NCBI RefSeq assembly: GCF_022045235.1
Contig: NW_027266268.1
Location: forward strand, 39,990,001 to 40,054,000
Length of the DNA: 64,000 bases
Direction: 5' to 3'
Origin: Haliotis cracherodii
Lineage: Eukaryota
The notes below the pieces were generated by a model. It did no database searches and had not been told where the DNA came from. It worked only from the letters and a program-made list of their open reading frames with translations. Within the stretch, counting starts at the first letter, position 1. The number at the start of each line of letters is the position of its first letter. Shown here one piece after another: positions 22,831 to 64,000 of the stretch. A program made the translations under genes and the position numbers.

Positions 22831-25800
22831 CTTAAATCTAACTTATCAAACTTCAAACCTGATTGTTAGACCTTAGAGAAAACATTTTATTTGTTTTAGC
22901 TTTAACTGACGACCAGATCAGGGAATACAATGTACAAAACACTGCGGTGTTAACAAAATGAACAAGTAAAAATCGAGTACAAGAAACAGTGTCCTTTTGT
23001 TGTGCCTACTAATATGTTTTCTCACACACTGCATTAGATGCATTCTAAGTACCTAACAGTAACCAAACATTTATCTTAACACAACCCTACAACTGGAATA
23101 GACTGCCTCACTTTTACCTAAACGTTACCCCACTACTGGAATAAATATTCTCCTCTTCAACCAAAAGATATACCCATTGCAATAATAAATTCCCCCTTTA
23201 TAACCTAAACATAACCCCATTAAGGAAGGAATATGTTCCCTCTCTATGGCCTCATTGTAACCCTCATCTCCCAATAGACCGATCCAGTACCGACCGATAA
23301 GCCACGCCCACAAGCTGCCGTCCTCGTTTTAGGCGTTAGGGGGGACAACCGCTGGCCATTCGCTATGGCGTCACAGCCGGCGAAACTTGAATGGGCGTAG
23401 GTTGAATTTGGCTCAGAATGCTTTGTTACGTCGTGTGTCAAAAATATCTGAAGAGAGTTAACATGATTTGTTTTGGGTTCTATTTTAGTTGTCACATTGC
23501 ATATCGGAGTGAGAATGTGTCATCAGTCCGATGTAACAGTGTATCAGTCAATGAGGAAGTCACCATGGCTGAAAGGTGCTAAAGCGTGCACTTCTTCGAA
23601 GCACTGATGACTATATTGTCAATAATATATAACTAAATTTTGTTTTAACTCTCCATCGTAATTTAAATGTATGGAAAGTACTGGAAACCGTAAACACAAG
23701 CACAACAAAGTTACAAATCATATGGATATCTAAAAATAGAAAGTCAACAGCTACATAAGCTAAAAGGGTTAGTGTTAGTGGGTCTTTTTAATGAATAAAC
23801 ATAAAAGAGTAGTTGATACATTCGAAGCAGTACATTATTTCCCCTCACTGCTACATTCGTTTTTATTATATAATAAATGAATCATAACGTATATTTTATT
23901 TGGGCATCTGGAGCATGGGGTGAGGCAGACCCCAGGGGCTGATATTCGGCTCCAAATGTGCATCAGATGTCAGTAAACTGTCCCTCTTCAAACGTTTTAA
24001 CATATCTATGTCATCCTTAAATAATGCAGAATGTAAGGAAATTATGTTACTATTTTTTTCCAAAATCTGTTTGCCGAGTGCACTTAGTTTGGAAATCTAA
24101 ATTTAGATAAAAATCCCTGATCACACTTCAAGAATTTTGGACTAAATAAACTGCCAGTATTTAGGTACATGGATGTGAGAATAGTTTAAAACATTGAGAA
24201 GATCCAAGATAAAATGAGCACCTATAACTGCCATGGTTATATTAAATCAATGGGATCCGTTTTCCAGAAAAGGGAAACGTGCTAAGGAAAAAGTATCTCA
24301 AGATAGGGTCTCAAGACAGGGTCTGCAGTATGTCCCATCAACTGACTTGCATTGATAAAATTTACAACACAAATTAAAATTTATTTATGATCTTTCATTC
24401 AAAAGACTTGTCATGAATCCAAGAATTATTACTGTTAACAACTAAACCTGTAACTTAAGTACAACAAATATCTCATAAGGAAGAGAATTTATGGATGTCA
24501 ATTTCTTAATTATGAGGAATACCACCATCCTTAAATTCTCTTCCTTATGTGTAACACTTCTAAATGCCACCAAAAGACTTAAATATGTCATAAGTTCAAA
24601 GTTTTCATCAACAAAATTACCTATTGACATCATGACTGTCACATAAGATATAATTCCTTATTGCCCCAGAAACCACATGCCTATAGGACATAACACTAAA
24701 CAATGTATCACATTTTAAAATTCACATGTGAAGTGACAAGTATTACTCATGCATGGAACAACATACATTAAATGCAAAAATCAGGTTGCCGGACACCTGG
24801 AGATGATTAGATACTTAAACATACATCCGAAGATCACTTCACAAATACTGGTGTGAACATGACCTTTCCTTAAAGAATTAAAACACACACAAACAGGGAT
24901 TGAGACCAGTTCCTTTTCTAGGATACTGACTGATTGTCATCCATAATGTCCTAAAGTTGTTCTAAAATTTAGTAAAGTGATATCAAAATATAAAAACCCC
25001 ACTTGAAAATGTCCTGAAGCCAGCAAAAGCACTGTGAAGTAAATATAAAGCTCATTCTCAACATAATCATAACCAATTCTTGAACAATATGTAAATAACC
25101 AACATCCTTAATAAACACTAGCTCTTGCTCAATTATCAAATATTGACAATCGTGAAATAAGTATCATGCCTTATGATACAGGTAATCACTTTCAACACTA
25201 TCTTTTTCAAAAATATATTATTTAAAAAGATGTTTTTTAATAATATTATGTCCTATAGAAAGAGCTAACAAGCTAAGTTTTATACCAGGTGGATGTTGTA
25301 CCATCAAACATTTAGTGTTTATTAGTGCAATTAAATCATATTAATCTTACTTTTATACGGCATCAATTAAATAACTGGTTGGAACAATTATTAATAACTT
25401 GATTAGATTATTTTTTTATTTCAGTCTGTCAAATATTTCAGTAATTCACTTCCTTCTCACGAAATGTTCCTCTTCACAAGAAAAGGATCAGGTAATTCAT
25501 TACTGCATGGGTCCTGTCTCTTCATAGAAATGCTGAAATAGTCAAGGCATGATTTAATGGGAACTTATATGAATTAAATTGATTAGATTTTGTGGAACGA
25601 AAACCATTGACAATGATTATATTTCTATGTCTACTGTTAGAGTAACTTGCAATATTATGCTCGAGTAATTTGTAATATTAATAGATAGACTTATTGTGAT
25701 TTTGAAATTAAATCATATCTAAAAATATGTAACAAAATAAATCATATCTAAGAGAGAGGAATTCAATTTCCACTAGATTGTACTTCAATGTAAATAATAG

Positions 25801-27519
25801 TAAATTTCGGTCTGCACTAACCAAAATCAGATCACTGTCATATTTGTTTACAGTGTGTCACATTTCAGCAATATGACCTGCTAACTCAATGACCGATGTT
25901 GCCAAAATGTACAAGCATTATGCTTGTTTATAACATGTGTAAAATCATAATTTGATACGTGTTGTCATTTACCTGTATTGAGCATGCATATGTGAAAAGT
26001 GCGAAAATTCGTACAAATTCTCACCTTCCAGTGGAAGATGGTGGCGACATTTAACTGATGGTGTGAGGCCAACCGCACATCTTGATCAGCCTCAAACATT
26101 TTTCTCCCGACCCTGTGGGTGTGGGTAAAGGTATACATATAATCCAAGCGATAATTAATGAACATCGCGAGTGAAAATAGCACAAACCGTTGCCACGTCG
26201 CTGCTTGGGTATGGTTTGACCCCGGAAGTAAGTCTGACAAATCCACAAAGCCCGCCCGGCCTTCTGATTGGCTCAAACTGACGCATGCTCCAATTTTGAC
26301 TGACCGACTGGATCGGTCTATTCCCTCTCTTTAGCTTGAACATAACCCCACTACCGGAATAAATTCCCGCCACTCGTTCTTTGTGGGTAATCCTTGCCCA
26401 ACTGCAGTAGCTTAACGTAAACTCAACGAACTTCGAAGCTGAGTGTTGCCACAATTTTGTTTTCAGTAGTTCATCAATATGTTATCAATATATTTCAATA
26501 TGATAATTCTTCTTCTTTAGCCAAAGATGTGAGTTCCGATTCTGATGACTCTGGCGATGGCGATTATGGAGGTGAGACCTAAGTTCACACATATCAACAT
26601 ATGCCACTGTAATTTGTCAGTGTCCTCATTTTGCTTATCAAAGAACAAAGTTCTAGTCTCATGAAACCATATCAAGATGTAATGCTGTTTAATTATGACG
26701 CACGTGTAAGTGCAGGTATGTGTTATTTTGCTAGTTAGTTTTACTGTCCTTTGTTGACCAGATATAATATAATATGAATGTATTGCCAGCCTCATGAGCT
26801 TTATATTTTACGAGAAGATGTCAAAATCGCAGTAAAGAAAAACGGGGCTGCATGAAGGTGAAAAGTTCGTAGCTTAATACAAAAAATATCATATATGCCA
26901 AGACAGGTATTATTCCGCACATGTTATTTGGAGACACCATAGCTTGGATTATTCATACAATATTTCAGTTTCTTTGAGTGGCATTTAGAAGTTGGAGTGA
27001 TGAAGTAAGACGAGTTCTATGGATGAACAACTCCTTTATTACAATTAGTGTTAGATCCTAACACCTTTATCAAGCCAGTGATGGATAGGGATAAACAACA
27101 TAGGTATATATACACTTATTGACATCTAAGTTGTTACAGTGACTAGTTGATGGACACAGAGAGGTGGATTAAGCTAATTGGAAGCCAGTGGATGACTAAT
27201 GAACACAGAGTATACATGCAGAGTAAACAAGCAGACGATTGCAAAGCAATAATTCAGCTGCCCAGACCTTGTAGTTCACAGCAGATGTCAAACATGCAAT
27301 AACAATTGCAAATATGGGATACACAGTCAAAGGTTGATGAACATAGCTTGATCTGCAATCGTAATAAAGATGCCAAACGTATATTATGCCGCAAACCAGA
27401 TATGCTAAAGATTAAGTTCCATAATGATGTATGCAGAAATGTTCGAGTAATTGGCACATATGACAGTTTCAACATGATACTGCTACATTATACATATATC
27501 CATTCCATCCATAGACAAA

Positions 27520-28563
27520 CTACTGTTCCCCGAGTTGTCAAAAAAGGCGGCTCAACATTTCGGAGCTGAAACTGATTCCTGTGACTTCATGGGGAACCCA
27601 GAGTCAGAGAGTGCCAAGATCAGTACCTGGGTGGCCGAACAGACCCACAATAAGGTCCAGGGAGTGATCTCACCCTGTCTCTCACTGAAGACACATCAAT
27701 GATTTTAGTAAATGCAATCTATTTTAAAGGAAAATGGTCAAATGTCTTTGATAAGGATTCAACAAGGAAGGACTCGTTCACTATCTTCTCCTCAAAGAAG
27801 GTCGTCGTTAATATGATGAACACCATAGACACGTTTGAGCACAGTGAGATCAAAGACTTGGATTGCACACTGCTGGAACTACCTTATGTTGGGGACAAAC
27901 TCCTTCCAAGAGAATCCAGTGGTTTGACTTCCCTGGAACAGAACCTAAAGCCTCATCATCTTCAGTTCTTGCTGAATTCATTGGAGGAAGAGAATGTGTC
28001 CATGCACATAAAAGTAAAAGATGGAATCCAGTTTTGAGCTAGCGGATGTCCTGTCCACTTTAGGCCTGACTACAGCTTTTGATCCCGTGGAGGGCAACTT
28101 TTCTGGGATTTATCCCTAAGGGTTGTTGACCGTGTCGAAGGTGGTCCATCTTAGGTTTTCACTGGCGTATACATTTAGTTTTCAATAACCAACCCAAATC
28201 AATGCCGGGGGAAAAACCATGCGGTTTATTACATAATGATCTCACACTCAAGAGAGCAAACAAGGGAGGTAATTCTAATGCACGTATTGGCACTGATAAA
28301 GTAGAGAGTCTGTGGATCGATACTGGTCATGGTATTTTATCTTTTATACATACACAACAGTCCACAAGAGCTTTGTGGAGGTCAATGAGGAGGGGACAGA
28401 AGCAGTGGCATATACCATGATGCACTGAGTTGATGGGCATGACACCAAAGGAGATCATCTTCAAGGCCCATTATCCATTTCTATTCTTCATCCGAGACAG
28501 ACGAAGTGATATAATCCTTTTTCTGGGGTGGATTGTGAATCCAGAAGGAATGAAAAGAGATTA
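27520..28563 (+). pseudogene. Intronless intracellular-type serpin pseudogene (left arm)
   Basis: MILVNAIYFKGKW, LLELPY, VSKVVH|KSFVEVNEEGTEAVA (hinge), YPFLFFIRD..ILFLGWIVNP. Frameshifted and split by a solo LTR. Confidence 0.92.
28149..28359 (-). mobile_element. Solo LTR of the Gypsy element, TSD GTCCA
   Basis: 211 bp homologous to LTRs 55397-55606 and 59719-59929; TSD at 28144-28148 and 28360-28364. Confidence 0.93.
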
Positions 28564-28569
28564 ATTCAT

Positions 28570-30047
28570 CTAGGTTTTGATATTTAAGATCCATTCCAGT
28601 TTCAAGTTTCCAGTTTCCAACAGTTTCCAGTTCCAGTTCCAGTTCCAGTTCCAGTTTTTGTTTTTGCCAACGGCCATTTTCAGGGCCACCCGACTCTCAC
28701 AAAAGACCACTTTGATCATTGCAAACCCTACAACCCCAAAAGACCCCCATATCATCCCCGCCACACCGTGCATGCATTTTGACGTGAGTGATACCACGTT
28801 TGCATGGATACACAAGTAAAACACCACGTATGTATATAAAAGACAACCTATGTTTGTAGACACGAGTGACACCACGTTTGCATGGATACACCAGTAAAAC
28901 ACCACGTATGTCTATAATCGCGTCACCATATCTCCCCGAAAAAACGTGATCGGAAAGGCAACCAATCAGAAGTTAGAACAGCGGATTGTGATTTCTCTCC
29001 AATGGAACATGACTTTTCGTATGAAAAAAGAAACACAAGAGTCAAACCGGTTTGGAAAACGTACTGAGACCAGCACTGAAATGGACCAATCGGCGCGCTT
29101 CGTTTTGGACCAATCAGCATGATGAGGGTTGGAGGAAAGACTCGTAGTAAGAGTGGCCCGACTACATCCCTGTCAACAGCAGACCCCCAAGTCTGTTCAT
29201 CAGAGCACCCCAGCTACATCCATAGGAAGGAGGAAAGGCTCCCCGTCAACAGCGGATCCCAAAGGCTGCTCGTCAGGGCACCCCGACACCATCCACGGAG
29301 AAGGAATGGTTCCCCGTCAACAGCGACCCACCAAGGCTGCTCGTCAGAGCACCCCAGTTACATCCCCCAGAGGAGGAAAGGCTACAGAAGGTGTGTGTTA
29401 AGATACATATTGTGTAATCAGGGACGATGGTGTCACCATCGGAGGAGTCGGTGACTCATGCACCATTAGAGTGGATCGAATCATTGACTCGTGCTGCCAA
29501 CGATCGCGAGTTCAAGCCAAAGCCAGAACACCACAAGACGCTATGCTATAACTGTAACTACTTTGGTGGTTGGCAGGTCCATCGGCCAAAGTAGCTAGGA
29601 TGAAGTTTCCGTTCCTGTTTCCGTTCCCGTTCCATTGTTGGTGTTTTTTCTTCTCCAAACGGCCCTTTTCAGGGCCACACAACTCTCCCGTAAGTAAACT
29701 TTCGTCATTGCTTTGCCAACAAAGAAAAATAGTACCTTCCTCCTCCTCCTCCTCCCTCCTCCTCCCTCCTACTCCTCTTCCTCTTCCTCGTCCCTCCTGA
29801 TGCCCATGATAGCCTTACTTGCTCCTTGGAGGATTTTAAGTGCGCTTCTTTTAGAGAAGTGGAGTATTTTGCGTGCGCTTCTCCTCGCACGCCTCCCGGA
29901 AACGGACATGCCGCCATCTTGGAGGCATGCGCAGGTTTCCCCAGCATTACCAAGCATGCCCCTCTTTGCGCATCCAAGATGAGGGCACTTCCGGTAGGGG
30001 AGATAACTCCTGCTGGTTTACGGGTTAGGGTACTGTCCTTAACTACT
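28570..30047 (-). mobile_element. One-ended Maverick/Polinton-related remnant (family 2), left arm
   Basis: Ends in ACTACT at 30042-30047 inside a family C repeat. Shares internal minisatellite, CCAAT module and subterminal module with the 43553-50494 element. Confidence 0.7.
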
Positions 30048-31129
30048 GCCGTCGGTCTGTAAATAATCGAGTTTGGACCAGACAATCCAGTGATTGACAT
30101 CATGACCCTCGATCCACGCAATTGGGATACGATGACATCCTGTTAGTCACCTCTTACGGCAAGCGTAGTAGCCTTTGATGGCTACCTATCTACCCAGGAT
30201 CTTCACTGGTCGCTATAATGGAAATTTTATGAAATGAGGCAATAGTTCTGGTATCTTATGAGCGAACGCTGGTAAGATATCAGAACAATTTACGAGTTGT
30301 TGTGTTCCCTTGCTTTCTCACCTCATACCCAAACTCGAATGTTGAGATACTTTTAGTTTCAGAATTACATCAATCTATTATAAGTATTATCACAACGTTC
30401 TTTTCATTCAAAGAAGTCGGAAGAATGGTAAGACTGAAATAGCATTGAGACTCACTTTTACGCATTTTAAATTGTCGGGGCATTGAAACCTGTAAGACAA
30501 ACCAAGTTTGCTCACCTGAATACCTGTCTTCATAACCAAAACATCTTTTACATATGGAACAAATAAAGTAAATAAACAGATACATCACCACACCGATAGT
30601 ATCTAAGACATCACTGTCCCTGAAATTCTGTAGTGCAGCTCTTTAATGTTATTTTTGTATCTCTAGTGGATATTTCGCGATTAAGACATGCGGTAAAGGT
30701 GGAACCAATTGTGGTCTCAACACATTTTTACTGAACATCCAGCTTGTTGAAGAAGCATTTTATTTTTTCAAACCTGTCAATGCCCCTGAATATTTCAGTC
30801 GGTCATACATTTTTCATAGCTATGTTGCCCTTTACGTCAAATAAAATCTGTGTATAGAAGGTGTCTTATATAGACTGGTTCTCTTGCATTTCTAACTAAT
30901 ATATCAGAACATCCAGCGTGTAGTTATATGTTTTCAAACATGTCAAAGTACCTTAACATATTAGTCCCTTCTGCATTGTACCTGATATTGATCCACACAT
31001 GGATGTGGGATTCGTAACCAGAGTCAAGCAATGTCAGCACCATGACCAAGGTCTAACAGGTCTAAATAACATTAGTGTTTGAAATTGGTGCATTTCGGCC
31101 TGTTAACAAAGTGAATCGTTGTGTTACAG

Positions 31130-31713
31130 GGTCAGAGTCTCCAGTGTACAATAAATCAGAACACAAGAATGTCAACCTCCATATTGCCACCATCTTGGGT
31201 GATCTGGCCTCAGTTCGACGCTTCTTGTCTGAGGATGGGGCGGACATTTCCAGCGGTTTCAGAAGGGGGTGGAATCGCAAATTATATGCAGTCCAGAAAA
31301 AAAATTGTTATATTGTCAATCATGGTTTTGAATTTTTGGAGTTTACTATCCTTCACTGGGCCTGTTACAGAGGATTTGTGAGGATCGCGAAGTATATCCT
31401 CTCTCAGGACAAAGTGGACATCAACAGTAGAGATAGGCGGGGGCAAACACCTGTGATGGTTGCAGCAAAGAAAGGACAAAGGGATGTGTTGAAATTAGTT
31501 GTTAGTAAAGGAGCAGATGTGTCACTTGTTGATAAGCGCGGAAACAACATCCTTCATGGCGCCTGTAGAGGAGGAGATGTGGAGACTGTGAAGTATATCC
31601 TTTCACGAGTCATGGAAGACCTTAATGTCAGAGACAGATATGGGCAGACTCCAGCTGATATTGCTAAATGGCATAAAAAGACGGAAATATTTAAGCTTCT
31701 CCAAGCAATGTAA
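31130..31713 (+). CDS. Ankyrin-repeat protein, probable terminal exon (about 4 ANK repeats), open frame
   Basis: TILHWACYRG, GQTPVMVAAKKG, GNNILHGACRGG, GQTPADIA; acceptor GTTACAG at 31129; upstream exons not identified. Confidence 0.88.
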
Positions 31714-31719
31714 ACATTT

Positions 31720-31900
31720 CCTCTCCATGTACTGTTGTGTGTCCATCAGTAGAATCAGTTCCATGTACTGTTAGCGTGCGTGCCGATCGGTAAAGCAGTT
31801 CAATGTACTGTTAGCATGTGTACCGATCAGTAGAATCATTTCCATGTACCAGTGGTCATGCGGCGTTACCGACATGTTTGTTTGCCGATCAGTAGAATTC
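31720..31900. repeat. About 40-bp minisatellite between the ankyrin exon and cassette
   Basis: Unit TCCATGTACTGTTAGCGTGTGTACCGATCAGTAGAATCAGT; same family as 42295-43256 and 51300-51585. Confidence 0.85.
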
Positions 31901-32250
31901 AGAGGATTTGTGAGGATCGCGAAGTGAATCCTCTCTCAGGACAAAATGGACATCATCAGTAGAGATAGGCTGGGGCAGACACCTGTGATGGTTGCAGCAA
32001 TGAAAGGACAAAGGGATGTGTTGAAATTAATTGTTAGTAAAGGAGCAGATGTGTCACTTGTTCATAACCACGGAAACAACATCCTTCACGCTGCCTGTAA
32101 AGGTGAGAAGTGGAGACCGTGAAGTATATCCTTTCACACGTCATGGAAGACGTTAATGTCAGAAACAGGTATGGGCAGACTCCAGCTGATGTGGCTGGAT
32201 ATCATGGAAAGATGAAAATCGATATCATAAAGCTTCTTCAAGCAATGTAA
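31901..32250 (+). pseudogene. Partial ankyrin cassette (tandem copy of the last repeats), with stop and frameshift
   Basis: RGFVRIAK*ILSQDK..GQTPVMVAAMKG..GNNILHAACKG, then a frameshift. Confidence 0.88.
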
Positions 32251-33625
32251 ACATTTCCTCTCTGATTTGGATTGTTATTTCTAATATCTACTATCAAGAT
32301 AAGGATGAGCATTCTGTTATGTGACAAAATCATGTAATTCATTAATACATAGGTATCCCAACATTTTAGGAATGTATATATGTGTTTATATAATGGAACA
32401 CTTTTGTTCGAAATGGTTCATGAAAATGTAACCAAGTATAATTTATTCTCTAAATAATGGCTGGGAATAATCCTGTAAAACTGCAAATGTAACAATTGCT
32501 GAATTGATATACAATAAAAGATGTGAATACATAGCGTCATGAAACTGGATTTATAAGTTATTCTCCTCAGGCGGCGGACCCTGTCCTTGTTTGAACACAA
32601 GTTTGTCTGACTTGGAACTGTTCAGCTACAACATGTACACGAAGAAAAATTATAAAAATAAAATATTATAAGTTATAAAACATTAATACATTCCTGATTA
32701 CAAGACCTGTAAAGAGCTGGGGTAGAATAGCTCTTCAGCAACCCATGCTTGCCGTAAAAGGCGACTGACGGGATCAGATGGTCAGGCTCGATGACTTGGT
32801 TGATACATGTCATCGATCCCAATTGCATAGGTGACCTGTGCAGGGCGTTGTGGGCCATGCGTGCGCATCCAAGATGACGACACTTCCGGTACCGGTGGCG
32901 TATACGACTCCAAGATGGCGACACGTCCTGTTCCGAGGGGCGATCTCCCCATCCAAGATGGCAGCACGGCACCTCAAAGATGGTGGGAGGAGAGGGGACG
33001 GGAAGGGTGGGGAAGGCGGTAAGGCGGTAGGGCGGAGGTATTTTGGGGTGGGGTGGGGGTTTAGTGGGTGGGTGGTGAAGAGGGTAGTAAAAGCAATGGA
33101 TAAAAGCGTTCTTTCGGGAGAGCTGGGTGGCCCTGAAAGGGGCCGTTTGATTCTGAAGAAGAAGAAGAAAACGTATGTGGCGCTGTCCGAGAAGCAACAT
33201 CAAAAAATGTTTGTTGGAAACAGGAAAGGAAACAGACTGAATCATCCATAACACCAGCAGCAACAGCAACAGCAGCAGCAGACGGGAAAACGGAAGTGAC
33301 AGAAAACCCCGGAGATGAAACCTGCAACACCTGTTACTTTGGACTCAGTGTTAGCTTCATTTACCTCTTCACCCACATTACTGCAGTGCTACACTTGCAG
33401 GGATGAATCGTTATCTTTCGTCTCACAGGACACTTGCTTGTGTGGCATAATCGCTTCATGTACGTGTCCTTCAGGACGGTGTTGCAATACAGGCACTGGA
33501 ATGTTCCATCACTTTCCTTCGTCCCAAGAGCATACACAGGCAGACAGCCTTGACACCTATCACATTGCCATGGAGGAGACGATAAATCAAAGAGAGCAGG
33601 CGTTCATCAGGCACTCATCGCCATC

Positions 33626-39289: not shown

Positions 39290-39324
39290 TTGACATGTAA
39301 AAATATGATAGCGCGATGTTGTCA

Positions 39325-48725: not shown

Positions 48726-48759
48726 AGAGTTTTAATATTTATAAACGTTTGTTGAAGAC

Positions 48760-49270: not shown

Positions 49271-49399
49271 AGCAGAAACGAAATACATCATGTAGGCATT
49301 CCTACATCACATCCATGTCTGTCCATGACGGTCAACCTTTAGAATTCCACAACATGATCAGGGTGACAGTGGACATTACTATCCAAAAACAGGATAAAA

Positions 49400-49630: not shown

Positions 49631-49656
49631 GAAGCTCTCAAACTGCATTGTATGAG

Positions 49657-49699
<43 letters not shown>

Positions 49700-49725
49700 A
49701 GCAAAACAACGCAGAGAATAGGGAT

Positions 49726-49951
49726 ATGGAGTTGGTTTCGATTGAAAGGCTGCCGCTGTGCAAAGACACCCGTTGGGACATGGAACTCACTTCTACGAAG
49801 ACAGCACCATCACCATCATTGCCATCGTCTCCTCCATGGCAATGCGATAGGTGTCAAGGCTGTCTGCCTGTGTATGCTCATGGGACGAAGGAAAGTGATA
49901 ACGATGCATCCCTGCATGTGTAGCACCTCAGTAATGTGGGTGAAGAAGTAA
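49726..49951 (+). pseudogene. Unknown Cys-rich small protein gene (internal deletion here; missing part intact at 33361-33582 minus)
   Basis: Composite of the two arms gives one open frame of about 106 aa with 10 Cys. Confidence 0.6.
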
Positions 49952-50957: not shown

Positions 50958-51305
50958 TTAAATGTTTACATTGCTTGAAGAAGCTTTAAGATTTCCATGA
51001 CAGCTAGCCACATCAGCTGGAGTCTGCCAATGCTTGTTTCTGACATTAAAGTCTTCCATGACGTGTGAAAGGATATACTTCACGGCCTCCACATCTCCTC
51101 CTTTACAGGCGGCGTGAAGGATGTTGTTACCGCGGTTATCAACAAGTGACACATCTGCTACTTTACTAACAACTAATTTCAACACATCCCTTTGTCCTTT
51201 CTTTGCTGCAACCATCACAGGTGTCTGCCCCAAGCTATTTCTACTGTTGATGTCCACTTTGTCCTGAGAGAGGATATACTTCTCGATCCTCACAAATCCT
51301 CTGTA
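50958..51305 (-). pseudogene. Partial ankyrin cassette (right arm)
   Basis: RGFVRIEKY..GQTPVMVAAKKG..GNNILHAACKGG; same junction to the minisatellite as 31901. Confidence 0.88.
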
Positions 51306-51602
51306 TTCTACTGATCGACACACATACATGTCAGTAATGCCACAATGCCACTAGTACATGGAAATGATTCTACTGATCGGTACACACGCTAACAGTACAT
51401 TGAACTGATTCTACTGATCAACACACAAATATGTGGGTGGCACCAACACGCCAACAGTAAATGGAACTGATTCTACTGATTGGTACACACGCTAACAGTA
51501 CATTGAACTAATTCTACTGATCGGTACACACGCTAACAGTACATTGAACTGATTCTACTGATCGACACACAACAGTACATGGAGAGGAAATGTTTACATT
51601 GC

Positions 51603-52178
51603 TTAAAGAAGTTTTAAGATTTCCGTCTTTTTATGCCATTTAGCCAAATCAGCTGGAGTCTGCCCAAGCATGTTTTTGACATTAAGGTCTTCCATGACGT
51701 GTGAAAGGATATACTTCACGGTCTCCACATCTCCTCCTTCACAGGCGGCGTGAAGGATGTTGTTACCGCGGCTATCAACAAGTGACACATCTGCTCCTTT
51801 ACTAACAACTAATTTCAACACATCCCTTTGTCCATTCTGTGCTGCAACCATCACAGGTGTCTGCCTCTTCCAATCTCTACTGTTGATGTCCACTTTATCC
51901 TGAGAGAGGATATACTTCGTGATCCTCACAAATCCTCTGTAACAGGCCCAGTGAAGGATAGTAAACTCCAAAAACACATTACCATGATCCACAATGAAAC
52001 AATGTTTTTTCTGGACTGCATATAATTTGCGATTCCACCCCCTTCTGAAACCGCTGGAAATGTCCGCCCCATCCTCAGACAAGAAGCGTCGAACTGAGGC
52101 CAGATCACCCAAGATGGTGGCAATATGGAGGTTGACGTTCTTGTGTTCTGATTTACTGTACACTGGAGACTCTGACCC
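51603..52178 (-). CDS. Ankyrin-repeat protein exon, right-arm paralog, open frame
   Basis: 197-aa ORF collinear with 31075-31713. Confidence 0.88.
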   Translation of the reverse strand, partial: GSESPVYSKSEHKNVNLHIATILGDLASVRRFLSEDGADISSGFRRGWNRKLYAVQKKHCFIVDHGNVFLEFTILHWACYRGFVRITKYILSQDKVDINSRDWKRQTPVMVAAQNGQRDVLKLVVSKGADVSLVDSRGNNILHAACEGGDVETVKYILSHVMEDLNVKNMLGQTPADLAKWHKKTEILKLL

Positions 52179-53264
52179 TGTAACACAACGATTCACTCTG
52201 TTAACAAGCCAAAATGCACCATTTTCATACCCTTATTATATTTAGACCTGTTAGACCTTGGTCATGATTAGCCCATTCGCGCATGGTGCTGACATTGTTT
52301 GACTCTGGTTACGAATCACACATTCATGTGTGGATCAATATCAGATACAATGCAGAAGGGACTCACACGTTAAGGTACGTTGACATGTTTGAAAACATAT
52401 AACTACACGCTGGATGTTCTGATATATAAGTTAGAAATGCAAGAGAACCAGTCTATATTATACACCTTCTATACACAGATTTTATTTGACGTAAAGGGCA
52501 ACATAGCTATGACAAAATGTATGACTGACTGAAGTAATCAGGGGCATTGACAAGTTTGAAAAAAAAATATGCTTCTTCAACATGCTGGATGTTCAGTAAA
52601 AATGTGATCGCTAAATATCCACTAGAGACACAAAAATCACATTTAAGAACTGCACTACAGAATTTCAGGGACAATGATGTCTTAGATACTATCGGTGTGG
52701 TGGTTTATCTGTTTATTTACTTTATTTGTTCCATATGTAAAAGATATTTTGGTTATGAAGACAGGTATTCAGGTTAGCAAACTTGGTTCGTCTTACAGGT
52801 TTCAATGCCTCGACAATTTAAAATGCGTAAAATGTGAGTCTAAATGCTATTTCAGTCTTACCATTCTTCCGACTTCTTTGAATGAAAAGAACGTTGAGAT
52901 AATACTCATAATAGATTGATGTAATACTGAAACTAAAACAATCTCAACATTTGAGTTTGGATATGAGGTGAGAAAGCAAGGGAACACACCAACTCATAAA
53001 TTGTTCTGATATCTTACCAGCGTTCGCTCATAAGATACCAGAACTATTGCCTCATTTCATAAAATTTCTATTATACGCGACCCGTGATGATCCTGGGTAG
53101 ATAGGTTGCCATAAAAGGCGACTATGCTTGTCGTCAAAGGCGATTAAGCTTGTCATAAGAGGCGACCAACGGGATGTCATCGTATCCCAATTGCTTGGAT
53201 CGAGGCTCATGATGTCAATCATTGGATTGTCTGGTCCACACTCGATTATTTACAGACCGACGGC

Positions 53265-55010
53265 AGTAGTTAAGGACAGTACCCTAGCCCGTAAGTCAGC
53301 AGGAGTTATCTCCCCTACCCAAGGTGCCCTCATCTTGGATGCGCAAAGAGGGGCATGCTTGGTAATGCCGGGGAGACCTGCGCATGCCTCCAAGATGGCG
53401 GCATGTTTGTTTCCGGGAGGCGTGCGAGGAGAAGCGCACGCAAAATCATCCACTTCGATGAAAGAAGCGCACGTAAAATCACCCAAGGAGCAAGTAAGGT
53501 TATCATGGGCAAGCAGTGATCAGGGGGGAGGAGGGACGAGGAGGAGGAGGAGGAGGGTTCTTTTTTTGTTTGTTGGCAAAGCAATGATGAAAGTTTTCTT
53601 TCGAGAGAGTTGTGCGGTCCTGAAAAGGGCCGTTTAGAGAAGAAAAAAACACCAACAATGGAAGGGGAACGGGAACGGGAACAGAAACAGGAACGGAAAC
53701 TTCATCCTGGCTACTTTGGCCGTTGGACTCAGGAGTAGTTGCATGCCTGCCAATGGCCAAAGTAGTTACAGTTGTAGCATAGCGTCCTGTGGTGTTCTGG
53801 CTTTGGCTTGAACTCGTTGGCAGCACGAGTCAATGATTCGATCCACTCCGATGGTGACAACATCGTCCCTGATTACACAATATGTATCTTAACACACCTT
53901 CTGTAGCCTTTCCTCCTCTGGGGGATGTAGCTGGGGTGCTCTGACGAGCAGCCTTGGTGGGTCGTTGTTGACGGGGAACCTTTCCTTCTCCGAGGGATGG
54001 TGCCGGGGTGCTCTGACGAGCAGCCTTTGGGATCCGCTGTTGACGGGGAGCCTTTCCTCCTTCCGATGGATGTAGCTGGGGTGCTCTGATGAACAGACTT
54101 TGGGTCTGCTGTTGACAGGGATGTAGACGGGGCACTCTTACTACAAGACTTTCCTCCAACACGCACCATGCTGATTGGTCCAAAACGCAGCGCGCCGATT
54201 GGTCCATTTCGGTGCTCGTCTGAGCCCCTGTTTTCCAAACCGGTCCGACCCTTGTGTTTCTTTTTCCATAGGGAAAGTCATGTTCCATGGGATAGAAATC
54301 ACAATCCGCTGTTCTAGCTTCTAATTGGTTGCCTTTTCGATCCTGTTCTTTCGGGGGAGACATATCCACCAACCCCATTTCCTCTCGGTGGTATGGTGAC
54401 GTGAGTAAAACCATACGGGGTGTTTTACTCGTGTATCCATGCAAACGTGGTGTCACTCGTGTCTACAAACATACGTTGTTTTTTATGGACATACGTGGTG
54501 TTTTACTCGTGTATCCATGCAAACGTGGTGTCACTCTTGTATACATACATACTGGTTGTCACTCGCGTCTAAATGCATGCACAATGTACATATGGACACG
54601 TTTATATATATATATATATACATACATACATACATACATGTACGTGGTTTATGAATGCATACGTGGTGTACTCCGTGTATAAATACAGTCGTGGGGTAAC
54701 TTGTGTATGACGTTTATCAGTACATGTGTGTTGTCACTCATGCATCCATGGAAATGTGGTGTCACTCGTGTATACATCCTTGCGTGGTGTCACTCGTAAG
54801 CGTGCGCCTCCAAGATTGCGGGGAGGATGTGGGTTGTAGGGTTTGTAATGCTCAAAGTGGTCTTTTGGAAGAGTTGGGTGGCCATGAAAATGGCCGTTGG
54901 CCAAAACAAAAACTGGAACTGGAACTGGAAAAGGATCTGGATCTTGAACTGGAACTGGAAACTGTTGGAAACTGGAAACTGAAATGGATCTTAAATATCA
55001 AAACCTAGAT
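53265..55010 (+). mobile_element. One-ended Maverick-related remnant (family 2), right arm
   Basis: Begins AGTAGTTAAGGACAG at 53265; mirror of 28570-30047. Confidence 0.7.
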
Positions 55011-55117
55011 GAATTAATCTCTTTACATTCCTTCTGGATTCACAATCCTCCCCAGAAAAATGATCATCTCACTTCGTCTTTCGCAGATGAAGAATAGAAA
55101 TGGATGACCAGGCTTGA

Positions 55118-55283
55118 GTGAGTGAGTGAGTATGGTTTTACGCCGCTTTTAGCAATATTCCAGCAATATCACGGCGGGGGACACCACAAATGGGCTTCAC
55201 ACATTGTACCCATGTCGGGAATCGAACCCGGGTCTTCGGCGTGACGAGCGAACGCTTTAACCACTAGGCTACCCGACCGCCCC
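55118..55283 (-). mobile_element. SINE family A, 12-bp TSD GACCAGGCTTGA, right arm only
   Basis: TSD at 55106-55117 and 55284-55295; empty site at about 28465. Confidence 0.92.
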
Positions 55284-55396
55284 GACCAGGCTTGAAGATG
55301 ATCTCCTTCGGTATCATGCCCATCAACACAGTGCATCATGGTACATGCCACTGCTTCCGTCACCTCTTCATTGACTTCCACAAAGGCCTTGTGGAC

Positions 55397-58300
55397 TGTT
55401 GTGTATGTATAAAAGCTATAATACCATGACCAGTATCGATCCACAGACACTCTACTCTATCAGTGCCAATACGTGCATTAGAATTAGCCCCCTTGTTTGC
55501 TCTCTTGAGTGTGAGATCGTTATGTAATAAACCGCATGGTTTTTCACCCGCCATTGATTTGGGTTGGTTATTAAAAACTAAATGTATCTGAAGAGAAAAC
55601 GTAACAATCTGACGACGAGGATTGTTTTTGTTCACGCCACTAGTGACAAACCAACGTTTAGCTATAATGGCAGCCATTGGAAACATTGAAGCATTTGACG
55701 AAGCAAACGGCACATGGGATGTGTATGCTGAACACATGGATGCGTATTTGAAGGCGAATGCAGTTGAGGAAAACTTACTTGTGAGTTCATTTCTGGCTGT
55801 AATTGGAAACAGAACTTATACTTTACTCAGAAGTCTTGTATCACTGGCGAAACCGGCAGATAAATCTTTGGAGGAATTGACGAATGTTTTAAAGGAACAC
55901 TACAGTCCGAGACCTGTTGTAATTTCTCAGAGACATAGATTTAGAAACTGGCGCCAAGAAACAAGTGAAACTATCGACAAGTATGTTGTTACATTTCGTG
56001 AGTTGAGTAAACATTGTGATTTTGGGACAAATCTGAATGACCAATTACATGATCAGTTAGTTTGTGGTCACAGATCGGATTCTATACAAAAGAGACCTTT
56101 GTCAGAAGACTTCAGTTTCCCTTGTGAGAGCTACCAATTACACTCAAGAATTACACAACAAGGTAAATTCAGAAGTAAACAAGTTATCAGTAAAGAAGAG
56201 AACTTTCCACAGAGATAAGCATGACAAGCGTCACACATATCCTACTGTAGTCACTGCTCCAAGACAAATCATCATGCTAATGACTGTTGGTTCAAAGACA
56301 TTGAATGTTACAAATGTGGCAAATCTGGACACATTAAAGCTACCTGTAGATCTAAACCAAAAAAATCAGATGAGAGGAAGAAACACGCTTATGACAAACA
56401 CAGGGTTCATAATCTAGATGAAGAACAAGGTGATGATATGAATGAACTTCCACTTTTCTGTGTGAAAGATCACGACCTCGACAACATTTGGGTGTATCCG
56501 AAAATCCACAACAGAGAACTGAAGATGGAGCTTGATATTGGATCAGCCTTATCGATCATATCAACCAAAGAATATAAATCTAGATTCAGTGATCTCAACC
56601 TGAACAAAACTGATGTTGTTCTAAAGACTTATACAGGTCAACCAGATAAACCTGAAGGCAAGTTAGACGTTATCGTCGAATATCAAGGTTAGAGGGAGAA
56701 CTTAGAGTTGTATGTGGTTGATGGTCCAGGGCCGTCTCTACTGGGAAGATCTTGGTTACACAAGATACAACTTGACTGGCAATCGATTAAACAGTTAACA
56801 GCCGTACCCAGAGAAACTAAAGGCGAGTTACAGGACATTTTACAAGCTCATGCACCAGTGTTTCGTAAGTAGCTTGGAACAGTGAAAATGTTAAGGCAAA
56901 GATAGAAGTAGAAGATGGAGTGACGCCAAAGTTTGTTAAAGCACGACCAGTCCCCTACTCTACGACCAAAAGTGGATGAAGAAATTGACAGGCTGGTACA
57001 GGAGGAAATCATTGAACCTGTTGACTTTAGTGACTGGGCAACGCCAATAGTTCCCGTGGTGAAGAAGAATGGTAAAATAAGACTTTGTGGAGATTTCAAT
57101 GTCACCATTTATCCTGTATTAAAGCGTGTGGAACATCCACTTCCAAGAATAGAAGATTTGTTCTCCAATTTGGCTGGTGGTCAGAAATTTAGTAAAATAG
57201 ACTTGTCCAATGCATACCAACAAATGTTATTGGAAGATGATTCAAAGAAGTTAGTTGTTCTGAGTACCCAGAAAGGATTGTTTACATTCAGTCGCCTACC
57301 CTTTGGTGTGTCTTCAGCACCCACACTATTCCAGCGTACAATGGAACAGATTCTACAGGGACCGGAGTACTCTGTTACATGGATTATATGCTCATCACAG
57401 GCAAATCTGCTGCAGACCATTTGACTAATCTCAAAAATGAGCTTCAGAGATGGGAAAACTGGGGTATAAGAGTGAGCAGAGAGAAATGCTTCTTTTTCCA
57501 GTGGAATATCTAGGACACAAGATTGACTCAATGGTCTTCACACGTCAAAAGACAAGGTAGAAGCAGTAGTGGAAGCTCCCGCACCTGCACATGTCACACA
57601 GCTCTGCAGCTTTCTAGGACTCGTCAACTATTATAACAGGTTCCTACAGAATCCATCTACAGTGCTCCGACCACTCCACAAGTTGCTCGAGAAAGATGTT
57701 GAATGGAACTGGACCAGAGAAGCTGATTGTGCCTGTAAGAAAGCTAAAAGACTGTTGTCATCAGCGGATGTACTTGTACATTATGATCCAGAGTTACCAG
57801 TTACGTTAGCATGTGATGCCTCTCTATATGGGGTTGGCGCAGTGTTATCACATGTAACCAAGAATGGAGAAAAACCTATCGTTTTCACATCCAGAACATT
57901 AACGAGCACAGAGCTCAACTATGCTCAAATCAAATCGAGGCTTCGGCCCTGACATTTTGTGTGAAGAAGTTCTCACAGTATCTCATTGGTAAGAAATTCA
58001 CACTTGTTATAGATCAACGCCCTCTCACCAAGATATTCGGACCAAAGACTAGTATTCCAAAGTTAGCGGCAGCTAGACTACAACGTTGGGCAAGTCAGCG
58101 TATGACTACAATTTAGAATACAGGACATCCCAAAGTAACGCCAATGCAGACGGATTTTCCCGTTTACCGTTACCTGCCAAAGCCAAAGACTATGACAATG
58201 AAGACCCAGCTAGTATCTTTAACTTGTCACAGATATCAAGTGTACCAGTTGAAGCTTCCAAAGTGACCACAGAGACCAGGAAGGACATTGTATTGTCAAA

Positions 58301-59929
58301 AGCAGTTGACAATGCTCTCACAGGATGGTGTATGACTGTTAACCAATCTCTAAAGCCATTCTACAGACGCAAGGATGAACTAACAGTTCAACAAGGTTGC
58401 CTCATGTGGGGCATGCTTGTCGTAATTCCTCACAGTCGCAGACCGACGGTGTTGACAGAATTACATGAAGGTCACCAAGGTGTCGTCAAAATGAAGGCCC
58501 TCGCACGAAGCTACGTGTGGTGGCCAGACATTGACAACGACATAGAAGAGACAGCCAAAGAATGTGATGAATGCCAGAGACATCAGAACTTGCCACAATC
58601 TTCACCTCTGCATCCATGGCAGTATCCACCAGGTCCATGGCACAGACTGCATGTTGATTTTGCAGGCCAATTTGAAGGTAAAATGTTTTTTGTGGTGATT
58701 GATGCTTACAGCAAGTGGCCAGAGGTTGTAATTATGAATTCAGTCACAGCTTCTAAGACTATAGAAGCTCTTCGCAGCATATTCAGTAGATTTGGATTAC
58801 CTCTACAAATCGTAAGTGACAACGGACCTCAGTTCACGTCCGAAGAGTTTGCTCACTTCGCCAGCAGGAATGGGTTCCAACACATAACGTCAGCGCCCTA
58901 TCACCCTGCCAGTAACGGGTTAGCTGAGAGGTTTGTTCAGACCCTGAAACAAGCTTTACGTGCAAGTTCATCCCAAGATTCAACTATCCAACAGAGACTG
59001 TCAGTGTTCTTAATGAGATATAGGAACACACCACATTCTATCACTAAGGAACCACCATCAGTGTTGTTAGTAGGTAGCAGATTAAGGTCAAGATTGGATC
59101 TTCTAAAGCCAAGTGTAGCTCAAACAATGGCTATTTCGCAGGAGAGACAGATCCAAGACCGAGCCAATCAAAGGATTCGAACACAGGAGTTTGAGTCCAG
59201 TGATACCGTTATGGTAAGGAGCTACCGTGATGGTCCCAAATGGATACCAGGATCAGTTGTTCAACGCACAGGACCTGTTTCATATCAAGTTCAAGTAGAT
59301 CCGAACACTACATGGTGACGTCACTCAGATCAACTTGTGTCACATACTCCGTCAAAACAAGCTACACCTGATCAACGCAGTAGCATCAACATTCCATTCC
59401 TTGAGGGAGAAAGTTGTACAAGTGTTCAAGATACAGTGAACGCAGAACAGTATGTAAATGACAAGGTTGTCATTCCTGAACGTCGGTATCCAGTGCGCGA
59501 AAGAAAGGCTCCAGTCCGCCTTGATTTGTGACTTTAATGTCAGCAGTATTAATCTTTAATTGAAATGATTTGTTTTGTATGAACCAGTTGAAAGACATTC
59601 AGTTAAATGTGTTTATTTCAGGGAACAAAGACTTCTAACCAGTAAAGAATTTCATTGACTCTTGTTACTAATGTTCACAATTAACAGTGGTGAACATGTA
59701 AGCTAACTTGGGAGGAGATGTTGTGTATGTATAAAAGATTTAATACCATGACCAGTATTGATCCACAGACTCTCTACTTTATCAGTGCAAATACGTGCAT
59801 TAGAATTACCTCCCTTGTTTGCTCTCTTGAGTGTGAGATCGATATGTAATGAACCGCATGGTTTTTCAACCGCCATTGATTTGGGTTGGTCATTGAAAAC
59901 TAAATGTATACGCCAGTGAAAACGTAACA
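55397..59929 (+). mobile_element. Full-length decayed Ty3/Gypsy (Mag-like) LTR retrotransposon
   Basis: TG..CA LTRs 55397-55606 and 59719-59929; TSD TGGAC; PBS-like TGACGACGAGG; PPT GGGAGGAGA; gag with two zinc knuckles, protease LDIGS, RT, RNase H (ACDAS), integrase (HVDFAG, SDNGPQF). Confidence 0.97.
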
Positions 59930-61237
59930 TGGACCACCTTCGACACGGTCAACAACCCTTAGGGATAAATCCCAGAAAAGTTGCCCTCCACGGGATCAAA
60001 AGCTGTAGTCAGCCCTAAAGTGGACAGGACATCCGCTAGCTCAAAACTGGATTCCATCTTTTACTTTTATGTGCATGGACACATTCTCTTCCTTCAATGA
60101 ATTCAGCAAGAACTGAAGATGATGAGGCTTTAGGTTCTGTTCCAGGGAAGTCAAACTACTGGATTCTCTTGGAAGGAGTTTGTCCCCAACATAAGGTAGT
60201 TCGAGCACTGTGCAATCCAAGTCTTTGATCTCACTGTACCCAAACGTGTACATGGTGTTCATCATATTAACGACGACCTTCTTTGAGGAGAAGACTGTGA
60301 ACGAGTCCTTCCTTGTTGAATCCTTATCAAAGACATTTGACCATTTTCCTTTAAAATAGATTGCATTTACTAAAATCATTGATGTGTCTCCAGTGAGAGA
60401 CAGGGTGAGATCACTCCCTGGATCTTATTGTGGGTCTGTTCGGCCACCCAGGTATTGATCTTGGTTCCCCATGAAGTCACAGGAATCAGTTTCAGCTCCG
60501 AAATGTTGAGCCGCCCTTTTTGAGAACTCGGGGCACAGTTGCTTGTCCTTTCTCACAAACAGTTTATTAGCCACAGCTAATTCACAGCCTTTCACTTTTC
60601 CAGTCATAACTGACAAGTACTCCTGCAAAGCGATATGAACGGTACGTGCCCCCTACGGGTGAATGGATATTCTCAGATAATGTAGCAGTATCATGTTGAA
60701 ACTGTCATATGTGCCAATTACTCGAACATTTCTGCATACATCATTATGGAACTTAATCTTTAGCATATCTGGTTTGCAGCATAATACATAATATGTTTGG
60801 CATCTTTATTACGATTACAGATCAAGCTATGTTCATCAACCTTTGACCGTGTATCCCATATTTGCAATTGTTATTGCATGTTTGACATCTCCTGTGAAAT
60901 ATTGTATGAATAATCCAAGCTATGGTGTCTCCAAATAACGTGTGTGGAATAATACCTGTCTTAGCATTTATGATATTTTTGGTATTAAGCTACGAACTTT
61001 TCACCTTCATGCAGCCCCGTTTTTTTCTACTGCGATTTTGACATCTTCTCTTAAAGTATAAAGCTCATGAGGCTGGCAATACAATCATATTATATTATAT
61101 CTGGTCAACAAAGGACAGTAAAACTAACTAGCAAAATAAACCAAACCTGCACTTACACGTGCGTCATAATTACATCATGATATGGTTTCATGAGGCTAGA
61201 ACTTATTTTGTATGAAAAGCAAAATGAGGACACTGTC

Positions 61238-61850
61238 AAATTACAGTGGCATATGTTGATATGTGTAAACGTAGGTCTCACCTCCATAATCGTCATCGCC
61301 AGAGTCATCAGAATCGGAACTCCCATCTTTTGCTAAAGAAGTAAAAGGATCAAATTAAAATATATCGATAACATATTGATGAAATATTGAAAACAATATT
61401 GTGGCAACACTCAGATTTGAAGTCCGATGAGTTTACGTTAAGCTGCTGCAGTTAGGCAAGGATTACTCACAAAGGAGTAGTTGCGGGAATATATAAAGTC
61501 TGGCGTCATGTTTTCTTTCGTTTGTATGACAAATTAACATTGTCGTGGCATGGCAATGTTCTTGATTATGGCCGTTTGTTAAGCAAAATGAGGGCATTGG
61601 CAAATTACAGTGGCATATGTTGATATGTTTGAACTTAGGTCTCACCTCCATAATCGCCATCGCCAGAGTCATCAGAATCGGAACTCCAATCTTTTGCTAA
61701 AGAAGAATTATCATATTAAAATATATTGATAACATATTGATGAAATACTGAAAACAAAATTGTGGCAACACTCAGATTTGAAGTTCGTTGAGTTCGCGTT
61801 CAGCTACTGCAGTTAGGCAAGGATTACTCACAAAGAAGTAGTGGCGGTAA
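61238..61850. repeat. About 250-bp local direct duplication, right arm only
   Basis: AAATTACAGTGGCATATG..GGATTACTCACAAAG occurs at about 61238-61490 and 61602-61850; single copy at about 26370-26615. Confidence 0.8.
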
Positions 61851-64000
61851 TATATTCCGGTAGTGGGGTTATGTTCAAGTTAAAGAAAGGGAATAGACGG
61901 ATCCAGTCGGTCAATCAAAATTGGCGCATGCATCAGTTTGAGCCAATCAGAAGGCCGGGAGCTCTTTGTGGATTTGTCAGACCATACCCAAGCAGCGACG
62001 TGGCTACGGTTTGTGCTATTTTCACTTGCGATATTCATTAATTATTGCTGGGATTAGATGTATACCTTTACCCACACCCACAACGTCTGGAGAAAAATGT
62101 TTGAGGCTGATCAAGATGTGCGGTAGGCCTCACCATCAGTTAAATGTCGCCACCATCTTCCACGAGACTGCTCGAAGGTGAGAATTTGCACGAATTTTCG
62201 CACTTTTGCACATATGCATACTCAATACAGGTAAATGACAACACGTAGCAAGTTATGATTTACGCATGTTATAAACAAGCATAATGCTTGTAACTACAAA
62301 ATCGTTTTTGAATTATGTATTTTGGCAGCATCGGTCATTGAGTTTGCAGGTCATATTGCTGAAATGTGACACGCGAGACGGCCGTGACACACTGTAAACA
62401 AATATGACAGTGATCTGATTTCAGTTAGTGCAGACCGAAATCTACTATTACTTACATTGAAGTACAATCTAGTGGAAATTGTACTCCTCTCTCTTAGATA
62501 TGATTTATTTTGTTACAGATTTGTAGATATGGTTTAATTTCAAAATCACAATAAGTCTCTCTATCAATATTACAAATTACTCGAGCATAATATTGCAAAT
62601 TACTCTAACAGTAGACATAGAAATATAATCATTGTCAATGGTTTTCGTTCCACAAAATCTGTCAATTTAATTCATATAAGTTCCCATTAAATCATGCCTT
62701 GACTATTTCAGCATTTCTATGAAGAGACAGGACCCATGCAGTAATGAATTACCTGATCCTTTCCTTGTGAAATCATCCCTTTAAGGTTAGAAAGAAGAGG
62801 AACATTTCGTGAGAAGGAAGCGAATTACTGAAATATTTGACAGATTGAAATAAAAAAATAATCTAATCAAGTTATCAATAACTATTTCAACCAGTTATTT
62901 AATTGATGCCGTATAAAAGTAAGATTAATATGATTTAATTGCACTAATAAACACTAAATGTTTGATGGTACAACATCCACCTGGTATAAAACTTAGCTTG
63001 TTGGCTCTTTCTATAGGACATAATATTATTAAAAAAATCTTTTTAAATAATATATTTTTGAAAAAGATAGTGTTGAAAGTGATTACCCGTATCATAAGGC
63101 ATGATACTTATTTCACGATTGTCAATATTTGATAACTGAGCAAGAGCTAGTGTTTATTAAGGATGTTGGTTATTTACATATTGTTCAAGGTTTGGTTATG
63201 ATTATGTTGAGAATGAGCTTTATATTTACTTCACAGTGCTTTTGCTGGCTTCAGGACATTTTCAAGTGGGGGTTTTGTATTTTGATATCACTTTACCAAA
63301 TTTAGACCAACTTTAGGACATTGATGACAATCAGTCAGCATCCTAGAAAAGGAACTGGCCTGAATCCCTGTTTCTGTTTGTTTTCATTATTTAAGGAAAG
63401 GTCATGTTCACACCAGTATTTGTGATGCGAACTTCGGATGTATGTTTAAGTATCTAATCATCTCCAGGTGTCCGGCAACCTGATATTTGCATTATAAATG
63501 TATGTTGTTTCATGCATAAGTAATACTTGTCACTTCACATGTGATATTTCAATTGTGATATATTATTTAGTGTTATGTCCTATAGGCATGTGGTTTCTGG
63601 AGCAATAAAGGAATTATTTCTTATGTAACAGTCATGATGTCAATAGGTAATTTTGTTGAAAACTTTGAACTTATGACATATTTAAGTCTACATAAGGAAG
63701 AGAATTTAAGGATGATGGTATTCCTCATATTTAAGCTGACATCATAAATTCATTTCCTTATGAGATATTTGTTGTACTTAAGTTACATGTTTAGTTGTTA
63801 ACAGTAATAATTCTTGGATTCATGACAAGTTTTTTTAATAACAGATCATAAATGAAATATAATTTGTGTTGTAAATTTTATCAATGCAAGTCAATTGAAG
63901 GGATGTACTGCAGACCCTGCCTTCAGATACTTTTCCGTCACAGGTTTCCCTTTTCTGGAACATGGATCCCATTGATTTGATATAACCATGGCAGTTACAG

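Follow-up and report, generated by a model that had tools for sequence, protein, structure and literature searches.

How does a long inverted repeat come to break off in the middle of a transposon? We address this question for a stretch of 64,000 nucleotides from Haliotis cracherodii (contig NW_027266268.1, positions 39,990,001 to 40,054,000), which we refer to as the window. Here two diverged arms mirror each other around a spacer, and the homology between them stops within a Maverick (or Polinton) DNA transposon, whose left copy is cut at that point and whose right copy runs on to its terminus. The inverted repeat is a real but ordinary, decaying segmental duplication, consisting mostly of dead transposons and broken genes. 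On balance we favour an origin by fold-back or template switching in which the right side is the original. The locus is a layered example of a duplication-rich mollusc genome that grows and decays.

The inverted repeat and its spacer

Self-BLAST and a global alignment show that positions 24222-38433 (14,212 bp) match positions 64000-46155 (17,846 bp) in inverted orientation. Position 24222 is the point to which the right edge of the window maps, and both arm lengths are minimum values. The window is free of gaps (0 N).

24222-38433, plus strand: left arm, minimum extent, outer end beyond view
46155-64000, minus strand: right arm, running off the window
38434-46154, no strand: spacer, single-copy, 7721 bp

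A preliminary description of this DNA had proposed a diverged palindrome with arms of at least 14.2 and 17.8 kb around a 7.7-kb spacer, and both methods bear this out. Its right inner breakpoint (46155) also stands; the left one was placed at 38423, whereas homology ends at 38433, 10 bp further right.

In 22 collinear blocks, chosen by hand and excluding regions of short repeats and two replaced blocks, the arms differ at 655 of 9572 gap-free aligned sites (6.8%). Besides the two replaced blocks, the global alignment contains 13 arm-specific indels of at least 80 bp, 6 of them found only on the left and 7 only on the right. No inverted homology was found between the two halves of the spacer, where the best local score was 29 against 24-33 in 10 shuffles. 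The spacer between the inverted copies is single-copy, as in fold-back duplications.

Maverick copies in the two arms

Remnants of two Maverick families, A and B, lie in both arms. In the list below TIR stands for terminal inverted repeat, TSD for target-site duplication and SINE for short interspersed element; pPolB is the Maverick polymerase.

43553-50494, minus strand: Maverick B, right copy; 6942 bp, non-autonomous, with TIRs, AGTAGT-type ends and a 6-bp TSD
32830-38433, plus strand: Maverick B, left copy; partial TIR, broken pPolB at 33626-37546 (amino acids 1-1221 of protein P0053, with gaps), cut at 38433
36856-37072, minus strand: SINE in pPolB; right copy at 47348-47566 with the same site and TSD
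32703-32826, plus strand: piece of a family C SINE, left only, replacing the outer TIR end and TSD of the left Maverick
48734-49823, no strand: right-only block of Maverick sub-terminal-like repeats, in place of the N-terminal part of pPolB that is kept on the left
28600-30047, no strand: Maverick-like remnant A, left copy, with one end (ACTACT) at 30042-30047; right copy at about 53265-54975

The right copy of Maverick B continues to an intact TIR and TSD, as had been described: its TIRs lie at 43553-43746 and 50494-50289, the TSD GATGTT is found at both flanks, and the (AGT)2 motif is exact at one end and has one mismatch at the other, the TIR at 43553 beginning with AGTAGT. The two TIRs differ at 29 of 192 sites (15%), and their outer parts at 9 of 88. 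Between them lie a broken pPolB (48732-46965), a second pPolB end (45982-45604), an ATPase (45311-44702) and a CCHC frame (44450-43797). The right pPolB covers amino acids 359-1221 of P0053, a PF03175 protein to which the match by tblastn has 45-77% identity, and 12 of the 16 matches of the polymerase piece are Haliotis proteins. The ATPase piece was first flagged by a high-scoring Atlas lead and was later borne out as a broken A32-type packaging ATPase by a 73% match to the PF04665 protein P0068 (E 5.9e-30), which maps to 45311-44711.

A Maverick integrase was not found; among the 245 open reading frames of at least 68 amino acids in the window the sole rve match belongs to a Gypsy element, and tblastn with it gave no second site. 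Capsid and protease had no Pfam match in the same 245 frames, with no dedicated profile used, and 6.9 kb leaves little room for them. Relaxing Pfam to E values up to 1 on 18 Maverick frames added only the CCHC match.

As characterised in the available text of Barreat and Katzourakis (2021, PMC8097293), Mavericks have (AGT)2-type TIR ends, a 6-bp TSD, pPolB and a packaging ATPase, and most genomic copies are degraded. The right copy shares the TIRs, the 6-bp TSD, pPolB and the ATPase with these elements, and by these features it is a non-autonomous Maverick remnant. It differs from them in its length of only 6.9 kb, its internal rearrangement and the integrase, capsid and protease not found.

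The left copy retains more of pPolB than the right copy, and it stops 2.6 kb short of the inner TIR. Since the SINE in pPolB is common to both arms, there was one ancestral insertion of Maverick B, which was dead before the duplication. Because the right copy keeps its pair of TSDs and the left copy falls 2.6 kb short, the right side is the original one and the left arm is derived and cut. The other end of remnant A is missing from both arms.

Two further observations concern Maverick B. The right-only block holds repeats of 27-28 bp, an ATC run and a 180-bp piece that is 88% identical, inverted, to 44304-44481. Part of the ATPase piece (44690-45121) matches the C-terminal part of a TRIM56-like protein of Haliotis rufescens (P0067) at 80% identity; this is likely to reflect either the fusion of a gene model with a Maverick or the capture of a domain.

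Host genes, retrotransposons and the order of insertions

The remaining shared parts are two genes and the site of a Gypsy retrotransposon, whose long terminal repeats (LTRs) date some of the events.

27478-28570, plus strand: serpin pseudogene, left copy (PF00079, E 1.7e-26), interrupted by the solo LTR
28149-28359, minus strand: solo Gypsy LTR, 211 bp, TSD GTCCA on both sides
55397-59929, plus strand: degraded full-length Gypsy with gag, CCHC, reverse transcriptase, RNase H and integrase; TSD GTCCA; splits the right serpin (54975-60652)
31066-32254, plus strand: ankyrin-repeat pair, left copy, with a 41-bp repeat between the units; right copy at 50961-52232

Pfam identifies a serpin pseudogene in both arms (E about 1e-26). 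This is the gene that Gypsy interrupts, which the preliminary description left unnamed. Gypsy inserted within the serpin coding sequence, and its 5-bp TSD (GTCCA) is identical in both arms; hence the serpin was broken before it was copied. The Gypsy polyprotein is found in the right arm only, and the left arm retains a solo LTR of 211 bp flanked by that TSD, which confirms that solo-LTR formation was specific to that arm. The LTR pair on the right differs at 17 of 210 sites (8.1%), and the solo LTR differs from these two at 13 of 211 and 16 of 210 sites. The ratio of nonsynonymous to synonymous differences (pN/pS) of the serpin piece is 1.35 (10 and 2 changes), which is not telling on selection.

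Ankyrin repeats are likewise present in both arms, with units that differ from one another by 7.6-11%. The first frame of the pair is open on each side, at 31066-31710 (215 codons) and 51606-52232 (209 codons); its pN/pS is 0.65 (31.5 and 13.5 changes), not significant on these counts. The best named relatives of this frame among 50 matches are Haliotis proteins.

Both Maverick remnants, the Gypsy site, the SINE in pPolB and the ankyrin pair had been proposed as common to the arms and hence older than the duplication, and each was recovered in both. All common parts are collinear, including the same SINE site and the same Gypsy TSD, and we therefore trace the arms to a single ancestral locus. 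Three smaller features are confined to one arm.

55118-55283, plus strand: right-only SINE with an 11-bp direct repeat
26964-27274, no strand: left-only block of 311 bp, part of which is 77% like Penelope-type sequence at 40036-40162
61342-61702, no strand: right-only tandem duplication, 361 bp

The SINE at 55118 and the family C copy at 32703 proved arm-specific as claimed, the former with its direct repeat on the right only and the latter on the left only. An indel reported at 26968-27280 is also arm-specific; the size given for it, 315 bp, was not upheld, since the block measures 311 bp at 26964-27274. The two 361-bp copies, from a duplication reported at 61238, differ at 23 of 275 sites (8.4%) and form a star with the left copy, having 8, 14 and 11 private changes and one three-way site over the 275 sites. 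Given this star-like comparison the duplication cannot be called younger than the arms, as had been supposed; it could instead predate them and have collapsed in the left arm. By the star-like three-way comparisons, little time separates the inverted duplication from the tandem copies and from the insertion of Gypsy. The internal clocks, i.e. the TIR pair, the LTR pair, the tandem copies and the arms, all cluster near 8% divergence.

Short-read contigs across the locus

A search with the spacer listed 17 short-read runs. Contigs from four of these (X1, X2, X5 and X7) were compared over 32400-52399; X9-X16, with shares below 0.2, and X3, X4, X6, X8 and X17 were left out. The runs were chosen for containing the spacer, which favours samples with both halves. 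The results rest on contigs only, as 32 pieces listed of about 270,800. We counted a bridge where at least 31 letters lay on each side, and summed contig depth was not taken as copy number.

The left junction at 38433 is bridged in one of the four runs, X7, which comes from organism B (a second species label), with 42 and 361 letters on the two sides. It follows that the junction is old. X5 reaches only 22 letters past the junction and was not counted. The inner end (43553) and the outer end (50494) of Maverick B are each bridged in 4 of 4 runs. In X1 a left-specific piece shows 0 differences from the window, in a region where the arms differ by 29 letters and 45 gap columns, and right-specific pieces show 0-1; the depths of the two are similar. 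X1 is possibly close to the source and gives no independent support. The organism A runs X2 and X5 differ from the window at 24 of 2264 and 32 of 3091 letters (1.0-1.1%). Organism B differs at 106 of 2752 letters (3.9%) over 8 listed pieces, which is below the difference between the arms.

At the right junction one of the four runs, X5, has a contig in which 45761 is followed directly by 47090. The loss of 1328 bp (45762-47089) falls between the pPolB-end repeats, in the register of an internal direct repeat, and takes away the innermost part of the right arm. This is possibly a deletion allele or a graph artefact, the latter because the join falls within a 36-bp identical stretch. A high-depth joint in organism B, from 46133 to 46697, suggests that the two sides of 46155 are connected in further copies of the family as well. 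An organism B piece that ends at 45797 and the lack of a listed piece over 46155 are together uninformative either way.

X1 and X2 also have contigs at 51938-52399 that lie 7-8% from the right ankyrin region and are without the 19-bp gap of the left arm. These ankyrin 5′ pieces are probably from a third copy elsewhere.

Origin of the duplication

The original layout is that of the right side: host DNA with a serpin killed by Gypsy, the ankyrin pair and a non-autonomous Maverick between its TSDs. A break or stalled fork near 38434 may then have led to a template switch to 46155 and outward reverse copying, which would leave the 5-8 kb between the switch points as a single-copy spacer. The switch may have fallen inside an already dead Maverick by chance, given that about a third of the region consists of Maverick DNA. 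Afterwards both arms decayed through point changes, at least 13 indels of at least 80 bp, SINEs and solo-LTR formation. A single switch accounts in one event for spacer halves that share no inverted homology.

Several points weigh against this account. Among the pieces listed none bridges 46155, and long reads were not seen. Without an unduplicated ancestor the microhomology that marks fold-back is unreadable, and the outer junction lies beyond the window. A deletion at the centre would yield the same product. Furthermore, the third-copy contigs of X1 and X2 suggest that neither arm was necessarily copied straight from the other.

The centre deletion is the strongest competitor, although we consider it clearly less probable than the switch. 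The palindrome would once have reached further in, perhaps to an almost perfect centre, before the left arm alone lost 2.6 kb or more and was thereby trimmed into the Maverick. Asymmetric centre deletion occurs in long palindromes, and sequence loss is frequent in both of these arms, as the 13 large indels attest. The left Maverick is, moreover, without its outer TIR end and TSD, and X5 shows the 1328-bp loss across 46155. The largest simple deletions seen are, however, 1.1-1.3 kb, well below the length needed; the deletion must also pass the old centre, as the spacer halves share nothing, and the junction was already present in organism B and is therefore old.

A further possibility, which we think unlikely, is that the left arm belongs to a segmental duplication with many copies and was placed here, inverted, from this paralog or a different one, so that the two levels of divergence would reflect mosaic sources. 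The probable third copy speaks for it: compared with the right ankyrin region, the X1 and X2 pieces show 22 differences in 325 letters and 38 in 462, both lack the 19-bp gap, and the X2 piece has a depth of 15.6 against 3.4-6.5 for others. A step in divergence along the arms, described below, and the duplication- and ankyrin-rich chromosomes of Haliotis fit this scenario as well. Mirror orientation at a distance of only 7.7 kb is nevertheless more simply explained by a local event, and the third copy is seen over about 460 bp only, in a very large gene family.

Was the Maverick itself responsible, either because two inverted copies of it folded back on each other or because the template was switched while the element replicated? 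The preliminary description proposed an element-mediated origin; fold-back or template switching remains plausible, but a causal role for the Maverick is not supported, and we rate it a little lower still. The junction does lie inside the element and near internal repeats (45575-45618, which resembles 46063-46106, and the second pPolB end), and 3 of 21 human junctions in the excerpted text of Hermetz et al. (2014, PMC3907307) crossed between inverted repeats. In this case, though, 2.6 kb separate the junction from the TIR, and the element was dead before the duplication, as the SINE in pPolB shows. Divergence does not rise at the inner end: 63 of 912 sites differ in the innermost three blocks (6.9%), against a Maverick mean of 8.5% and 10-15% for the TIR pair. 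No hybrid repeat was found at the junction, where homology ends abruptly and the innermost 912 sites are no more diverged than the rest; a value not above the Maverick mean argues against a hybrid of two independent insertions. Mavericks cover 27% (B) or 34% (A and B) of 38434-64000, so a random junction would land in one about a third of the time and its position needs no element-driven cause.

Least credible of all is an assembly artefact in which two haplotypes were joined head to head in repeats of the spacer. In its favour, abalone haplotypes can be strongly non-syntenic in the available text of PMC12627906, no long read was seen, and the runs were found through the spacer with a bias towards samples holding both halves. 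Against it, the window has 0 N, X1 has pieces specific to each arm, organism B has the left junction and both ends of the right Maverick, alleles 7% apart would need to persist across two species labels, and the differences between runs and window (1.0-1.1% for organism A, 3.9% for organism B) all fall below the 6.8% between the arms, which together with the local bridges makes a mis-join of two alleles unlikely.

Divergence along the arms

The preferred reading, a switch with the right side as original, leaves the divergence between the arms to be explained, as this is not uniform.

24222-28369, plus strand: outer stratum of the left arm, 152/3240 sites, 4.7%

This outer stratum ends at the one change point found, left position 28369, inward of which 503 of 6332 sites differ (7.9%). 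A step of this size was reached by 0 of 200 permutations, the support for the change point spans 28103-31554, and the best position adjoins the solo LTR, i.e. the Gypsy site. The step holds against inner non-Maverick DNA of similar GC content (177/2435, P 5.6e-5), and changes from A/T to A/T amount to 1.2% versus 2.6% in the non-Maverick inner DNA.

An old conversion tract probably homogenised the outer 4 kb a further time, or else this part mutated more slowly; a regional rate difference or a mosaic source may also account for the step. We prefer the conversion tract because the 4.3-kb mismatch between Gypsy and solo LTR would stop strand exchange at this very point. A scan of arm identity for conversion tracts, as the preliminary description advised, yields one step and no clear recent conversion. 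The longest identical run between the arms is 132 bp, within the ankyrin frame, and with a permutation P of 0.057 we did not accept it as recent arm-to-arm conversion.

In a bolder scheme, dead Mavericks would be preferred sites of template switching that mirror-copy host genes and so feed the ankyrin and serpin expansions on the duplication-rich chromosomes of abalone, with later conversion between the arms halted by the 4.3-kb mismatch to leave two strata. We hold this to be improbable as a whole. The locus would be of greater significance if inverted-duplication junctions were enriched in Mavericks genome-wide, or if the step in divergence does reflect conversion stopped by a transposon mismatch.

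Comparison with known systems

The palindromes of mammalian sex chromosomes are maintained by conversion and consist of long, nearly identical inverted arms around a spacer. The duplication described here is not a conversion-maintained palindrome; its arms are far from near-identical, with 655 of 9572 sites differing. Inverted gene pairs of C. elegans, in the part of PMC1803023 available, offer a parallel in their long inverted arms around a spacer, and the step is compatible with past conversion. The present locus departs from palindromes maintained by conversion in having arms only 92-95% alike, many unshared indels and no clearly working gene pair.

Human fold-back inverted duplications have disomic spacers of 1,866-70,466 bp, according to the excerpted text of Hermetz et al. 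(2014, PMC3907307). The abalone locus resembles them in its inverted copies, its single-copy spacer of a few kb, within the human range, and one sharp inner junction. Unlike the cases in that text it arose long ago and is shared, as a fixed or nearly fixed feature, by two species labels, with arms 6.8% apart and no hybrid repeat, and neither microhomology nor any adjoining terminal deletion is visible here.

The available text of Hirase et al. (2025, PMC12627906) describes extensive segmental duplication and ankyrin enrichment on the non-syntenic chromosomes of Haliotis. Our locus agrees with this account in being abalone-type DNA, a duplicated block with ankyrin-repeat genes and signs of further copies. 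That text differs in working at the scale of gene blocks, and it contains 0 occurrences of ‘maverick’. In a limited collection of literature we found no publication that brings Mavericks (Polintons) together with the breakpoint of an inverted duplication, or Mavericks together with ankyrins in a Haliotis genome.

Other features of the window

The spacer hosts three further elements.

40243-41757, plus strand: Tc1/mariner element (PF01498, E 2.4e-9; PF13358, E 7.8e-8), ends 82% inverted
39014-40162, no strand: fragment of a reverse transcriptase and a Penelope-like piece, with a GIY-YIG match short of the Pfam cut-off
42293-43265, no strand: tandem array of 39, 62 and 98 bp, with the motif and orientation of the right-arm ankyrin repeats at 51305-51580

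The array thus has the motif and orientation of the repeats between the ankyrin units, but no adjoining ankyrin frame, and Maverick B sits between it and the ankyrin pair. A candidate Tc1-like end, 11 bp to the right of the left junction and judged by general resemblance, was rejected, since the window has 3 matches at up to 3 mismatches, itself included, versus 2.15 expected.

Outside the inverted repeat, a LINE-like (long interspersed element) remnant at 9462-12677 has endonuclease (PF14529) and RNase H (PF00075) frames. A Tc1/mariner-like remnant at 3-619 has Pfam matches to helix-turn-helix domains, and a second at about 22000-22900 was recognised on inspection and from 73 bp that match the arm sequence at 61767-61839. 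A perfect (TA)30 microsatellite lies at 880-940.

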